Positions 1,762 to 6,620 of a DNA stretch of 64,000 bases are shown here, in pieces (the stretch's first letter is position 1; the number at the start of each line of letters is the position of its first letter). The notes below the pieces were generated by a model. The model saw nothing but the letters and a program-made list of their open reading frames with translations, did not search any database and was not told the origin of the DNA. The DNA is taken from NCBI RefSeq assembly GCF_003019035.1, contig NZ_CP027447.1. One strand, given 5' to 3'. This stretch comes from Escherichia coli (lineage in GTDB: Bacteria; Pseudomonadota; Gammaproteobacteria; Enterobacterales; Enterobacteriaceae). Both the position numbers and the translations under genes were made by a program.

Positions 1762-2061
1762 ATGGTGACTGACATGAAGTGTAATCGTAAGCGCTGGTCA
1801 CGCGAAGACCGGGAATTTATCGAAGCCAACGTCGGAAAAATGACCGTTGAAGAAATGGCGGAAAAACTGAAAGTCGCCACAACCGCCCTCCGGGCACATG
1901 CCAGAAGGCACGGAATATCATTGTGTGTATACCGAATCAGTGAACACGACAAATATTTATGTCGTGAACTTTATAAAGAAGGACTGGATATTCATGTCAT
2001 TGCCCGAAAGATGGAATTAAGCAATCGAGCTGTATCCAGCATTGTATACAGCGGATATTAA
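1762..2061 (+). CDS. Hypothetical early protein, possible helix-turn-helix
   Basis: 99-aa ORF; start overlaps the upstream stop (ATGA-type coupling). Confidence 0.45.
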   Translation: MVTDMKCNRKRWSREDREFIEANVGKMTVEEMAEKLKVATTALRAHARRHGISLCVYRISEHDKYLCRELYKEGLDIHVIARKMELSNRAVSSIVYSGY

Positions 2062-2080
2062 TTAACAGGAGCTTTAATTT

Positions 2081-2605
2081 ATGGCTAAACCAGCAAAACG
2101 TATCAAAAGTGCCGCAGCGGCTTATGTGCCACAAAACCGCGATGCGGTGATTACCGATATTAAACGCATCGGGGATTTACAGCGCGAAGCATCACGTCTG
2201 GAAACGGAAATGAATGATGCCATCGCGGAAATTACGGAGAAATTTGCAGCCCGGATTGCACCGATTAAAACCGATATTGAAACCCTTTCAAAAGGTGTTC
2301 AGGGATGGTGTGAAGCGAACCGCGACGAACTGACAAACGGCGGCAAAGTGAAGACGGCGAATCTTGTCACCGGTGATGTATCGTGGCGGGTCCGTCCACC
2401 ATCAGTAAGTATTCGTGGTATGGATGCAGTGATGGAAACGCTGGAGCGTCTTGGCCTGCAACGCTTTATTCGCACGAAGCAGGAAATCAACAAGGAAGCG
2501 ATTTTACTAGAACCGAAAGCGGTCGCAGGTGTTGCCGGAATTACAGTTAAATCGGGAATTGAAGATTTTTCCATTATTCCGTTTGAACAGGAAGCCGGTA
2601 TTTAA
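2081..2605 (+). CDS. gam: Gam host-nuclease inhibitor / DNA end-binding protein
   Basis: 174-aa translation recognised as Mu Gam; position after the early ORF block matches Mu. Confidence 0.85.
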   Translation: MAKPAKRIKSAAAAYVPQNRDAVITDIKRIGDLQREASRLETEMNDAIAEITEKFAARIAPIKTDIETLSKGVQGWCEANRDELTNGGKVKTANLVTGDVSWRVRPPSVSIRGMDAVMETLERLGLQRFIRTKQEINKEAILLEPKAVAGVAGITVKSGIEDFSIIPFEQEAGI

Positions 2606-2703
2606 TACCACCATTAATATTTAATTAATTCACATTCTTTTAATTATGGCGCGATGCGTCAGGGGATTGCTCGCGCCTGAAACAGATTACTGAGGAATAA
2701 AAC

Positions 2704-3234
2704 ATGGTTGATGCAAAAATTCTGAATGGTGTCAGCACATTATTACGGGCTTACGGACGCCTGACCTGCGGAGTTCTGGCTGAAAAAATGAAGATGCCTC
2801 CCTCATCAATGGTGTATTTCCTGCGTGATGCGGTTGATGTCGGCGTTCTCACCGAATGCAACGGATTTTATGACGTTCCGCGCCCGCGTCCGACGCCGCC
2901 TGTAAGACGAAACGCAACTGAGCAGCCTGCTGTTGATGATGCGGTGTGGTGCAACTGGCGTCGCTCATTACCCTGGGTGGAAGGTAATACCATCCCCGCA
3001 CTGGCAAAAGAGTTTGCGACAGGCGTACTGACCTGTGAGTCCGTTCACATCGTTGCAGAAGTGGATGACGAGATGTGCAAACAGGGAATGCCACGTTTTG
3101 TGATGGCTTATATCGATATCCGGCTGGGGCGGTTTATTTGCAGTTCAAGCGCCTGGAATATCACCGACCATGTACTGCGTTATCTCATTCTTGATTGTTC
3201 TCCGGCTCCCGTAGCGGTGCAGGAGGTGGCGTGA
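2704..3234 (+). CDS. Hypothetical early protein
   Basis: 176-aa ORF, first of four coupled ORFs between gam and gemA. Confidence 0.5.
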   Translation: MVDAKILNGVSTLLRAYGRLTCGVLAEKMKMPPSSMVYFLRDAVDVGVLTECNGFYDVPRPRPTPPVRRNATEQPAVDDAVWCNWRRSLPWVEGNTIPALAKEFATGVLTCESVHIVAEVDDEMCKQGMPRFVMAYIDIRLGRFICSSSAWNITDHVLRYLILDCSPAPVAVQEVA

Positions 3235-3758
3235 TGTTTTTTAAAACGTCAAATCCCGCAGCACTGCTGGCGTGGGACCAGTTTATGGCGGACTGTCTGA
3301 AACTACGCGAAGAAGCCCGCCATCTTGATAAGGTTCTGGGTTGTGGTTGCCGGTCAGTATTCAGCACAGGTATTGGTGGGCGTTATTTTCATGGTGTGAA
3401 CTTTCCGGGGAATGAGCGCCCTTTCTCGCGGGAGCTGTGGACCGTACAACGGCCCGCATCAGGTAACAGTTGCAGGCCTAGAACTTCGCGGATACCTGTT
3501 CATCTCAGGGAGCAGGCAAAAGAGCTGGCGAAAATATGGCAGGAGAATATTCCGGTCACTTATGCCCGCACAGATGCTCTTTTACCCGCACTGGGACTGG
3601 ATTTCAGCGCAACAATATTCGGGCCGCTCCGGTGGTTCCGTGTTGGTGATGTGATTTACGTCATGACGGGGATGACACCCGCACAGGGCTGCATGACGGA
3701 AATCCTGTCCGATGAATTCATGAAGGCAAAGATTGCGTTAAAGGGGGCCGCTAAATGA
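3234..3758 (+). CDS. Hypothetical early protein
   Basis: ATG at 3234 overlaps the upstream stop (GTGATG); the six-frame ORF at 3195 is rejected as an upstream extension. Confidence 0.5.
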   Translation: MFFKTSNPAALLAWDQFMADCLKLREEARHLDKVLGCGCRSVFSTGIGGRYFHGVNFPGNERPFSRELWTVQRPASGNSCRPRTSRIPVHLREQAKELAKIWQENIPVTYARTDALLPALGLDFSATIFGPLRWFRVGDVIYVMTGMTPAQGCMTEILSDEFMKAKIALKGAAK

Positions 3759-4423
3759 AAGAACGTGGCGTTGCTTTTAATGACGATATGGTCAGGGCAA
3801 TTCTCGAAGGAAGAAAGACGCAAACACGCCGCCCGGTAAAAAATGTCGGACACGATAACTGTCTGGTTATCCATCGTAACGGTGTTTATACCCACGTTAT
3901 GGATGCACCTGAGCATGGTTTATGCCCGTTCGGTAACGTTGGTGATCGCATCTGGGTCCGTGAAGCGTGGGCAATATTAGGCAATGAGGATGGTTGCAGT
4001 GTGGACTGGAACGGCAACCTTTGTCATGGCGATGAGAAGAAGGCAGCAAGGATTTATCGGGCAAGTTGTGAACAAAAGCCTGGTGATTACGGTCTGTGGT
4101 CAATACCTGATGATGCTGACTGGAAACCTCGCACTGTGAATGAAAAGTTTGATGGCAGGTGGTGCCCATCTATCCACATGCCGCGCTGGGCGTCGCGCAT
4201 TCTGTTGGGAATAACCGACGTGCGTGTGGAACGGCTGCATGATATTAGCGAGGCAGATGCGAAAGCGGAAGGCGCATTTCCGGCGACGTACAAAATTACG
4301 CCACCGGAAGCTGTTTATCGCGTTGGTTTTGGTGATATCTGGCGCGGTATTTATGGGCAAGATAACTGGCTGTCTAATCCGTGGGTATGGGTAATTGAGT
4401 TTAAGCGTATTCAGGAAGCATAA
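3755..4423 (+). CDS. Early protein with N-terminal ASCH-like (PUA-fold) motif
   Basis: 222 aa; N-terminal motif MVRAILEGRKTQTRRP resembles the ASCH GxKTxTxR signature (compare E. coli YqfB); start overlaps upstream stop. Confidence 0.55.
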   Translation: MKERGVAFNDDMVRAILEGRKTQTRRPVKNVGHDNCLVIHRNGVYTHVMDAPEHGLCPFGNVGDRIWVREAWAILGNEDGCSVDWNGNLCHGDEKKAARIYRASCEQKPGDYGLWSIPDDADWKPRTVNEKFDGRWCPSIHMPRWASRILLGITDVRVERLHDISEADAKAEGAFPATYKITPPEAVYRVGFGDIWRGIYGQDNWLSNPWVWVIEFKRIQEA

Positions 4424-4425
4424 CT

Positions 4426-4767
4426 ATGAGCAAATCACTTAATGCACGTTGTATTCGCCGTTGGGAAGTCAGATTTAAGCCTGTTTGTGATTCAAAAGTT
4501 AGCCCTCACATGCGTAAAAGCTTTTTGCGTGGGGTGCGTGAATTAGGGCTTATTACGGCTGAAAACATGGTTGAAAGCATGGCTGAGAAAAACGCCAGGT
4601 TTGATTACGACGGCAAGGACACAGGCTGGTCACCGGAGTTTTCTAACTGGTATGCAACATGCCGAGAAAAGTATTGTAAAGAGGCCCGCGACTATCTGGA
4701 TGAAGAAGTCACAAACGATGAGATCGATGAAGAAATCAGAACTGAGCTAGAGTATTGGAATGACTAA
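4426..4767 (+). CDS. Hypothetical early protein with acidic C-terminus
   Basis: 113-aa ORF, coupled to neighbours. Confidence 0.5.
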   Translation: MSKSLNARCIRRWEVRFKPVCDSKVSPHMRKSFLRGVRELGLITAENMVESMAEKNARFDYDGKDTGWSPEFSNWYATCREKYCKEARDYLDEEVTNDEIDEEIRTELEYWND

Positions 4768-5392
4768 TCTGGCCGATATGACCGGAAAGTGTTTCAGCGA
4801 TACAAGCGGTGTGGTAGCACCGCTTTTTAAAGGTATGATCATGAGTCGCACATCCCTGATTAAATTAATCCATGTCGCCCGTCGTGATCTACAACTCGAC
4901 GACGATACTTACCGCGCTTTTCTGATGCAGAAAACGGGCAAAATCAGTTGCCGCGAGCTGACGGTAACGCAACTGGAACAGGTGCTCGATGCCATGAAAG
5001 AACGCGGCTTTAAGAAGCTGAATAAACATCCACGTCGCCGCTTTAAGGGGCATGTCACGCCCCGCGAGAAGGTATACAAAGTCTGGCAGCAGATGGCAGA
5101 AGACGGTTTTATTACCGATGGCGGTGATGTGGCGCTGGATAAATATGTTCAGCGCCTGACGGCGAAACGTAATGGCGGACAGGGTGTTTCCACGCTGGCG
5201 TGGTGTCATGGCGACACCCTGTTGATTGTTCTCGAAACTCTCAAGCAGTGGCATATCCGCTGTATTCGTGAAGCCTTTTCCCGTCACGGGCTTCCGTTGC
5301 CGGTCAGTCCGTCCGGGCGTGAACTGCGCGGCTATGATGCCATGACGGCGGCTTATGCCCATGCCAGAAAGACACGGAGGATGGCACAATGA
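4760..5392 (+). CDS. gemA: GemA-like early protein
   Basis: Position immediately upstream of mor as in Mu; true start may be the internal ATG at 4841 (MSRTSLIKL...). Confidence 0.65.
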   Translation: MTNLADMTGKCFSDTSGVVAPLFKGMIMSRTSLIKLIHVARRDLQLDDDTYRAFLMQKTGKISCRELTVTQLEQVLDAMKERGFKKLNKHPRRRFKGHVTPREKVYKVWQQMAEDGFITDGGDVALDKYVQRLTAKRNGGQGVSTLAWCHGDTLLIVLETLKQWHIRCIREAFSRHGLPLPVSPSGRELRGYDAMTAAYAHARKTRRMAQ

Positions 5393-5778
5393 CGGAAGAT
5401 TTATTTGGTGATTTGCAGGATGACACCATCCTGGCACATCTTGACAATCCCGCAGAGGATACGTCACGCTTTCCGGCACTGCTGGCGGAGCTGAACGATT
5501 TACTGCGCGGGGAATTGTCCCGGCTGGGTGTTGATCCTGCCCATTCACTGGAGATTGTAGTGGCTATCTGTAAGCATCTGGGCGGCGGTCAGGTCTACAT
5601 TCCACGCGGTCAGGTTCTGGACTCGCTGATTCGGGATTTGCGTATCTGGAATGATTTTAACGGTCGCAACGTCAGCGAACTGACCACCCGTTATGGTGTC
5701 ACTTTCAATACGGTTTACAAGGCCATTCGCCGGATGCGACGGCTGAAATACCGCCAGTACCAGCCCTCACTTCTGTAA
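5389..5778 (+). CDS. mor: Mor, middle operon transcriptional activator
   Basis: 129 aa; paralogous to the downstream C protein (shared C-terminal helix-turn-helix region); position matches Mu. Confidence 0.85.
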   Translation: MTEDLFGDLQDDTILAHLDNPAEDTSRFPALLAELNDLLRGELSRLGVDPAHSLEIVVAICKHLGGGQVYIPRGQVLDSLIRDLRIWNDFNGRNVSELTTRYGVTFNTVYKAIRRMRRLKYRQYQPSLL

Positions 5779-5783
5779 ACAGT

Positions 5784-5808
5784 AAAGCCGGTTAATCCGG
5801 CTTTTTTT
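5784..5808 (+). terminator. Rho-independent terminator after mor (end of early transcript)
   Basis: AAAGCCGG-TTAAT-CCGGC hairpin followed by TTTTTTT. Confidence 0.7.
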
Positions 5809-6099
5809 ACGTCCTCAATATCCTGTGATGAATAACCGTACCGGGGGAAATCATCATGGGTAAAGGCTGGAATGCATCCTTTCATCTTGGCAGACGTGAG
5901 CGGCTGCGTCAGGAGGTTTTGCACCGTGTCGCCGGTGGGCCTCGGCCTTCGCCCCGCGACTATACCGGTCATGATGGCACCCACGGCAGTTATTACATGA
6001 AAGGCTGGCAGTCAGTTGATATGCCGGAAATTCTTCACCACTGTCAACGTTATAAGGAAAAATATTGTGTACAGAAAATTCAGTGATGAATGTTTCGGG

Positions 6100-6197: not shown

Positions 6198-6620
6198 ATG
6201 CAGCATGATTTATTTGAACACGATCCGGCAATTCGCCAGTTAATCGGACATATTGATAACATCCCGGCCCCGGAACTGGAATCACGCTGGCCCCGTTCGG
6301 TGGTTGATCTGATTGATGTTCTGGAAAACGAACTGAAACGCCAGAACGTCAGCAATCCCCGTGAACTTGCCCGTAAACAGGCCGTTGCCCTGTCCTGTTT
6401 TCTGGGGGGGCGGCAGTTTTACATCCCCTGCGGCGATACTATCCTGACCGCGTTACGCGACGATTTGCTTTACTGCCAGTTCAATGGTCGTAACATGGAA
6501 GAACTGCGTCGCCAGTACCGCCTGTCCCAGCCGCAGATCTACCAGATTATTGCCCGCCAGAGAAAGCTGCATACACGACGTCATCAGCCTGATCTGTTCT
6601 CACCTGAAAGCCAGAAATAA
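6198..6620 (+). CDS. C: C, late gene transcriptional activator
   Basis: 140 aa, Mor/C family; position matches Mu. Confidence 0.85.
   Translation: MQHDLFEHDPAIRQLIGHIDNIPAPELESRWPRSVVDLIDVLENELKRQNVSNPRELARKQAVALSCFLGGRQFYIPCGDTILTALRDDLLYCQFNGRNMEELRRQYRLSQPQIYQIIARQRKLHTRRHQPDLFSPESQK

Follow-up and report, generated by a model that had tools for sequence, protein, structure and literature searches.

A conserved, unannotated intercistronic motif with a predicted stem-loop where core and accessory early genes meet in Mu-like phages of enterobacteria

Locus and early operon

The stretch of Escherichia coli DNA analysed here (64,000 nt of contig NZ_CP027447.1, assembly GCF_003019035.1; hereafter the window) carries in its first 6-7 kb the early region of a Mu-like phage, which is about 97% identical to Mu (AF083977) over window positions 1800-3718. 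The early genes follow one another in the order end of B, kil, several small ORFs, gam, a gp11 homologue, further early genes, gemA, mor and C, and all of them lie on the + strand, the one along which the long Pe early transcript is read. This transcript runs from ner onward and through the semi-essential region (PMC3820752). Between B and mor, a single gap exceeds 20 nt, namely the 98 bp between gam and the gp11 homologue at 2606-2703; the remaining early genes overlap or abut in the ORF list. In the curated Mu record, the annotation of this gap consists of a ribosome-binding site only. The features of the locus are collected in Table 1.

Similarity to Mu, D108 and SfMu stops at about 3718, and window positions 3719-4767 form a second variable stretch within the early operon. 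Two ORFs without a Pfam match (3755-4423, 222 aa, and 4426-4767, 113 aa) stand there in place of the Mu E14-E15 region.

Table 1. Features in and around the gap between gam and the gp11 homologue (window coordinates)
Feature	Position	Strand	Basis and remarks
gam (host-nuclease inhibitor)	2081..2605	+	ORF list; 97% identical to Mu, Mu_10 Gam in AF083977
A/T-rich tract into hairpin	2606..2647	+	Tract plus leader 22% GC
Covariance-model match, conserved core	2630..2692	+	End of U-rich tract, hairpin, CCUGAA and start of leader
5' arm of outer stem, GGCGCGA	2648..2654	+	Sequence; predicted fold
Apical part	2655..2670	+	RNAfold and alignments; conserved sequence GCGUCAGGG
3' arm of outer stem, TCGCGCC	2671..2677	+	Sequence; predicted fold; covariation
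Leader of next gene	2678..2703	+	UGAA after the stem, then Shine-Dalgarno GAGGA at 2693-2697
gp11 homologue, first gene of the distal block in the window phage	2704..3234	+	Pfam Gp11_C; other phages have other genes here
mor	5389-5778	+	ORF list

Sequence and predicted fold of the hairpin

A GC-rich inverted repeat had been placed in this gap, at about 2646-2675, by the first-pass annotation. The repeat is real, with exactly 16 nt between its arms, and the position given for it was 2 nt too low, the actual one being 2648-2677. The description of the gap as AT-rich apart from the repeat was also correct, the hairpin having 73% GC against 22% for the other 68 nt. When the gap was shuffled 5000 times, a perfect 7-bp inverted repeat with at least six G/C per arm arose in 0.02% of the shuffles. 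The pair does not appear in the automated repeat listing, probably through the treatment of GCGCG as a short-unit run, and is plain by eye.

Structure prediction, which had been proposed as a check on the repeat, returned a stable but irregular hairpin of about 12 bp for the + strand RNA (RNAfold, -17.4 kcal/mol, z = -2.6). It consists of the 7-bp outer stem, a U bulge, a 5-bp inner stem with one G-U pair and one bulged U, and an AGGG loop. The predicted apical pairs are G2656-C2670, C2657-G2669, G2658-U2668, U2659-A2666 and C2660-G2665, with U2655 and U2667 bulged and the loop at 2661-2664. The opposite-strand RNA is predicted at -15.4 kcal/mol, and the DNA at about -10 kcal/mol on either strand. 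The tract 5' of the hairpin holds TAATTAA/TTAATTA palindromes (2622-2628 and 2640-2646), extra TAA stop triplets past the gam stop, a pyrimidine/U run (2635-2641) and AAUUA (2642-2646). On the 3' side, CCUGAA, which comprises the last two stem bases and UGAA, is common to the Mu, O157, Erwinia and Klebsiella types.

TAATTAA and TTAATTA also make up a second perfect 7-bp inverted repeat, paired in the RNAfold minimum-energy fold of the gap; since 9% of shuffles yield some 7-bp repeat, it is probably a by-product of composition. Mu proper (AF083977, about 6364-6401) has A for G at the positions corresponding to 2656 and 2664, with the loss of one inner pair and a loop region that reads AGGAG, a perfect Shine-Dalgarno-like sequence. 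Other variants likewise retain an all-purine loop (AGAGG, AGGGA). Within the window, a search for a kissing partner of the loop gave 13 matches at two mismatches or fewer, none of them tellingly placed. The small ORF MARCVRGLLAPETDY, with 15 codons from the ATG at 2646 to the TGA at 2693, was rejected as the conserved feature: its frame is shifted by a 1-nt indel in the O157 type, and an ATG is missing from both group B and the PhiKM type.

Distribution among phages and genomes

Related loci were gathered via the Gam protein (in viral contigs and in one genome per species), by an exact DNA pattern, and by BLAST against phage and E. coli collections, and a covariance model was built on 17 diverse copies. 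With cmsearch, this model (R1) scored 70.9 bits (E 2.9e-14) on the element in the window, which is the single copy in the 64 kb at E<=1, and it found 65 + strand copies in the 97 other sources searched. The element follows gam in Mu, D108, SfMu, PhiR68_1 and Yersinia Mu-like phages. It also does so in the O157-type E. coli prophages, whose core TTTTAATTATGGCGC-TCGCGTCAGGGGACTGCYTGCGCCTG is nearly unchanged although identity in Gam is down to about 57%. A version reading CGGCGCTTGCGTCAGGGATTCGTTCGCGCCG follows gam in a Kluyvera and Enterobacteriaceae group, and one reading CCGGCGTCAGCGCCGTGGGCTTCTGCACGCCGG does so in the PhiKM phage type, which is the third lineage in E. coli. The covariance model also matches Erwinia and Pantoea prophages, and BLAST matches a Klebsiella phage. 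Homologous A/T-rich blocks (ATTAAT ... TTTAAnTATGG) lie 5' of the hairpin in the O157-type, PhiKM-type, Erwinia, Pantoea and Klebsiella elements. Conservation across Mu-like phages, a further check proposed with the first-pass annotation, was strongly positive and is accompanied by compensatory base changes.

Of the 5,426 complete E. coli genomes, 321 contain the element in its Mu and O157 types and 623 in its PhiKM type. The 56-nt element occurs at 379 places in E. coli genomes against 385 for the 401-nt Mu-like gam junction, and because these counts are nearly equal, the element appears to be restricted to Mu-like prophages in this species. A REP or other dispersed repeat was rejected, given one copy in the 64-kb window and an occurrence only in Mu-like prophages. 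As a separate observation, three distinct Mu-like prophage lineages are common in E. coli, with some version of the element in each.

No Rfam family was found by cmscan of 2300-3000 at E<=10, which gave two chance matches elsewhere only. The element is unannotated in the Mu, SfMu and Klebsiella records, and in the E. coli RefSeq and phage records among the matches listed. A full-text literature search, whose reach does not extend to the older Mu papers, gave no description of it, and an earlier mention is possible.

Across gam loci from many bacterial groups, 53 of 128 distinct ones have a gap of at least 40 nt after gam. A GC hairpin of considerable predicted strength (-13 to -28 kcal/mol), next to which there is no U tract, is present in most of these 53 gaps and falls into several unrelated sequence families, the exceptions being mainly loci at which the ORF caller had chosen a spurious start at 40 nt. 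The recurrence of post-gam GC hairpins in unrelated sequence families suggests that a structural role at this position is generic and wider than the family described here.

A different hairpin follows gam in Mu-like prophages of Nitrosomonas and related hosts (L047 at about 2015-2080, L051, L044, L192 and L224). It is exemplified by GATGGCG-TTAAATCTAG-CGCCATC, located in the first 70 nt past the gam stop. Its 5' arm and loop are complementary to the bases immediately before the next ATG, as in GGCGTTAAAT versus ATTTAACGCC-ATG in L047, and the same complementarity extends over 7-8 nt in L044, L051 and L192. This suggests that an alternative pairing could control the start site of the next gene.

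Covariation of the stem

On 42 distinct alignment rows, which come from related sequences and were fitted to the model, so that the covariation figures lean towards structure, a 14-pair model is 81% paired against 25-53% with the 3' partners slid by 1-3 columns, both sides change at five pairs (22 cells), and the observed covariation score was reached by 0 of 500 shuffles; a 10-pair version of the test was likewise run. The single swaps are visible directly in the raw sequences. The fifth stem pair changes from C:G to U:A in L041, the PhiKM type, Erwinia, Pantoea and the Klebsiella phage, and the sixth from G:C to A:U in Erwinia and Klebsiella (GGCGTAA/TTACGCC). The arms read GGCGCGA/TCGCGCC in Mu, GGCGT..ACGCC in the PhiKM type and L041, and GGCGTGA/TCACGCC in Pantoea. 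In the apical part, GUC/GAC becomes GCC/GGC in the PhiKM type, and C:G pairs are added at the base of the stem outside the Mu type. The spacing between the arms is 16 nt for the Mu type but widens to 19 nt for the O157 and PhiKM types, and the stem lengthens at different ends according to lineage. Predicted folding energies across lineages range from -13 to -22 kcal/mol, with z from -2.6 to -4.5. Judged by these comparisons, the element is a conserved stem-loop whose structure appears to be under selection.

A:C mismatches are present alongside G:U pairs, and the stem has mismatches in some prophage copies (L079, L081). Folding energy leaves the strand undecided: of the distinct variants, 15 fold more stably as the + strand and 13 as the - strand.

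Junction of core and exchangeable genes

The first-pass designation of the repeat as gam-downstream is true in the window and too narrow elsewhere. Two extra small ORFs separate the element from gam in Erwinia typographi and a Pantoea symbiont, which puts it about 430 bp past that gene. In Klebsiella phage ST405-OXA48phi1.1 (MK388859, about 4818-5886; L265/L266), a transposable phage with a repressor, a transposase, an ATPase and GemA, there is no gam at this place, and the element follows a DUF3164 gene and a 62-codon ORF. Because this phage carries these two where Mu has gam, the element is independent of gam. What precedes the element is gam, gam with two ORFs, or DUF3164.

The slot 3' of the element was compared at window 2678-3234 and at loci L003-L006, L012, L015, L021, L037-L043, L065, L106, L188, L189 and L265. 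Its first gene is one of at least 10 different ones among related phages, including the gp11 type (MVDAKIL), the DUF5420 type (MKAYAYF/MAYFYFK), genes beginning MTNQEM, MTTKSE, MSIKYRYF, MNEQQLISM and MIFKCIQCE, and others, several of the products being small proteins unrelated to one another. Between close relatives, homology stops a few bases past CCTGAA, the 3' foot of the stem. Throughout, the hairpin sits 30-46 nt past the preceding stop codon, and the next start codon follows it by 15-27 nt. Across the genomes compared, the element therefore stands at a fixed place, with the core early genes on one side and a variable block of accessory genes on the other. The element stays while the genes on either side change, which is consistent with an operon-level rather than a single-gene signal.

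Terminator and promoter features

The first-pass annotation had also noted that the repeat does not look like a terminator, and this agrees with our results. A U tract is absent on both strands, and the hairpin is called neither by the terminator scan nor in the TransTermHP annotation of the Mu record. An intrinsic terminator was rejected: the GC-rich stem-loop is present, but there is no U run 0-2 nt past the stem on either strand. Directly past the stem, the + strand reads UGAAACAGAUUACUG and the - strand AUAAUUAAAAGAAUG, with TGAAACAGATTACTG downstream of the hairpin, and the homologues of the hairpin are likewise without a U tract. What the scan does call is a stem and T-run after mor, at 5784-5804, and not the gam hairpin.

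The mor terminator has an 8-bp stem, AAAGCCGG-TTAAT-CCGGCTTT, followed by TTTTT; it is a textbook intrinsic terminator and matches the point at which the early operon of Mu ends. The gam hairpin is like it in being a GC-rich stem-loop at the end of a gene, and differs from it in having no U tract, a longer irregular stem with an internal loop or bulge, and translated early genes directly downstream.

A scan of 2000-3400 gave no sigma-70-like promoter. A promoter in the A/T-rich tract was rejected as well: there is no match of at least 9/12 on either strand, the best -10-like hexamers are not conserved, and the start would fall inside the stem.

Proposed role in the early mRNA

The repeat is the central part of a conserved cis-element, some 60-75 nt long, in which an A/U-rich tract is followed by the irregular, GC-rich stem-loop (about 12 bp) and then by a short leader. 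In enterobacterial Mu-like transposable phages, this element takes up the one non-coding gap that the early operon has. Because it lies on the coding strand of the Pe early transcript, it is transcribed and should fold as RNA. It is not a terminator, a function as an operator is disfavoured, and from the sequence evidence it most likely acts in the early mRNA. We infer that the RNA is the active form and that the mechanism is one of decay or processing. An RNA-processing element within the early transcript, which the first-pass annotation had named next to an operator, would fit everything seen. We tentatively favour, as quite possible if short of probable, an intercistronic RNA stem-loop of the Pe transcript that would shape mRNA stability or processing at the border of core and accessory genes. 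The hairpin would block 3'-to-5' exonucleases, so that the A-B-kil-gam segment would be protected after the message is cut further downstream. Additionally or instead, RNase E could cut in the adjacent A/U-rich tract, and the hairpin would then cap the 5' end of the distal accessory segment. In this way the amounts of the core early proteins would be uncoupled from the variable distal genes, and whichever gene sits behind the element would find a constant context. Some observations weigh against this proposal. An exonuclease barrier leaves the conserved apical sequence GCGUCAGGG unexplained, the undecided strand (15 versus 13 variants) leaves a DNA palindrome or hairpin possible, and the conservation of the junction could partly reflect repeated recombination and not selection at the RNA level.

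REP-type and other intercistronic stabilising hairpins, such as that of malE-malF, which are associated with segmental mRNA stability in operons, share with the element a stable, GC-rich hairpin that no U tract follows and that lies in a transcribed gap within an operon, at a point where the upstream and downstream genes plausibly need different expression. The element differs from REP in its one copy per genome, its unrelated sequence, its conserved apical sequence and its conserved A/U-rich 5' tract; an effect of the element on mRNA half-life would be hypothetical. The classical RNase E site has an A/U-rich single-stranded tract directly 5' of a stable hairpin (T4 gene 32, RAUUW). In common with RNase E sites (the T4 gene 32 -71 site, RNA I, 9S RNA), the window has an A/U-rich, predicted single-stranded segment, the AAUUA mentioned above, 5' of a stable stem-loop, and every lineage has a U/A-rich tract on the 5' side of the hairpin. 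A RAUUW-like motif is missing from some of these lineages, group B and the PhiKM type having U-runs instead, and the segment is a candidate site only. PeSL (promoter-early stem-loop) cassettes of T4-type phages flank shuffled accessory ORFs. The element has in common with them a short conserved non-coding stem-loop motif that borders exchanged small accessory early genes, and differs in that no promoter was detected, in its one copy per genome as opposed to repeats, and in the phage family.

Alternative readings

Among the alternatives, a site for an RNA-binding factor, in the sense of a translational operator of the first distal gene with the G-rich apical loop recognised on its GC clamp, is rather unlikely. 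The factor could be a protein of the host (CsrA, for instance, binds GGA displayed in a hairpin loop) or of the phage, or else the 30S subunit, given a loop that resembles a Shine-Dalgarno sequence (AGGGG in the window, AGGAG in Mu, AGAGG in L007). Such an operator would account for an apical sequence conserved beyond the needs of pairing, and for the 15-27 nt that always separate the hairpin from the next start codon, whichever the gene. GGA, which CsrA requires, is present in the apical part of 19 of the 26 distinct cores and absent from the PhiKM type, the most abundant lineage, and from L038/Kluyvera, L040 and L041; that GGA is not invariant, with whole lineages lacking it, counts against a CsrA site. 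In the PhiKM type and some others, pairing between the U-rich tract and the Shine-Dalgarno sequence is predicted around the hairpin, with the Shine-Dalgarno sequence buried. Such an anti-Shine-Dalgarno basal helix is predicted strongly in the PhiKM type and also in L041, Pantoea and others, and overall it is a composition effect only: we do not claim it, because the pairing (0.47) is no better than with a shuffled upstream tract (0.43), and in the window the Shine-Dalgarno sequence is largely open. The RNA site of Com, the activator of Mu mom, is CC(N)2-3GAG in a hairpin loop (PMC6483171). This motif is missing from the hairpin, which speaks against an operator acting via Com, and a Com site was rejected; no candidate phage RNA-binding protein was found either. 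A more ambitious proposal, which we regard as doubtful, is a dedicated structured RNA whose sequence-specific apical loop would be read by a conserved host or phage factor and would gate the exchangeable accessory slot, possibly with counter-defence genes. A DNA-level element is distinctly unlikely, whether as an operator, in the sense of a palindrome bound by a protein, or as a conserved linker that would mainly lead to homologous recombination between related phages and so form the fixed left border of the gene slot. It would agree with the break in homology just past CCTGAA, with different genes after it and varying genes upstream as well, and the near-equal stability on both strands together with both A:C and G:U mismatches is what a DNA palindrome would give. 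A spacing of 16-19 nt and a stem that lengthens at different ends are awkward for a dimeric DNA-binding protein. The operator suggested by the first-pass annotation is further disfavoured by arms that co-vary without a recognisable half-site, a centre that is asymmetric yet conserved, and the want of a nearby promoter to control, and a recombination linker needs sequence identity, not pairing upheld by compensatory change.

It is improbable, in our estimate, that the element is a transcription signal in the nascent RNA, either a pause or attenuation hairpin or a nut- or put-like antitermination site that would govern the amount or the pace of RNA polymerase arriving at the distal early genes and mor. 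Its place in mid-operon upstream of the regulator mor and its stable nascent-RNA hairpin would suit such a signal. The RfaH ops consensus is GGCGGTAGCGTG, and GGCGCTCGCGTC of the O157 type is faintly like it by eye (9/12). An ops site (GGCGGTAGnnTG, with conserved G5-T6-A7, read on the non-template strand) was nevertheless rejected, the 9/12 of the O157 type being the best match and columns 5-7, with the ops-critical G5, T6 and A7, being the most variable of the family. BoxA and boxB are absent, and a lambda-type nut site (boxA plus a 5-bp boxB with a purine-rich pentaloop) was set aside, with no conserved boxA and with an apical stem of 3-5 bp and a loop of 3-4 nt. The element does share with lambda nut and RfaH ops the character of a cis-signal in an early or long operon transcript, a small hairpin and a partly ops-like GGCG...GCG; it differs in that the positions which define boxA/boxB or ops lack conservation, with neither a partner protein nor downstream terminators evident. 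Between the element and mor, the scan gives no intrinsic terminator above chance level for which antitermination would be required. A consensus pause sequence is missing at the distance where one would be expected, and the lack of an Rfam match also counts against a transcription signal. A CRISPR-repeat mimic, a preQ1-type riboswitch, an integron attC or IS200-type hairpin, an RNase III site and a tRNA-like minihelix were considered and appear unlikely for lack of their defining features. That the element is a functionless relic, for example the decayed stem of a terminator at an old module boundary, is likewise improbable. The stem mismatches in some prophage copies (L079, L081) would suit a relic. 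Against a relic stand the compensatory upkeep of the stem across lineages in which the flanking Gam is only 57-63% identical, the retention of the element in rearranged contexts and in those without gam, and its being the only gap tolerated in a tightly packed operon.

Significance

Mu is a textbook phage, yet the element is unannotated in the records examined and has no Rfam family. We regard it as an unannotated, conserved intercistronic stem-loop motif of about one in six E. coli genomes, whose function is likely conventional. It marks the exact end of the core transposition and replication genes and the start of the swappable accessory genes. A dedicated, loop-read RNA, should that be the correct reading, would establish a new kind of regulatory RNA in phages, carried by roughly every sixth complete E. 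coli genome; a merely stabilising hairpin would be an ordinary though well-conserved example. If the element controls the fate of the mRNA or its translation, it would explain how a changing set of accessory genes is expressed from one promoter, and it would offer a handle for engineering or annotating the slot.
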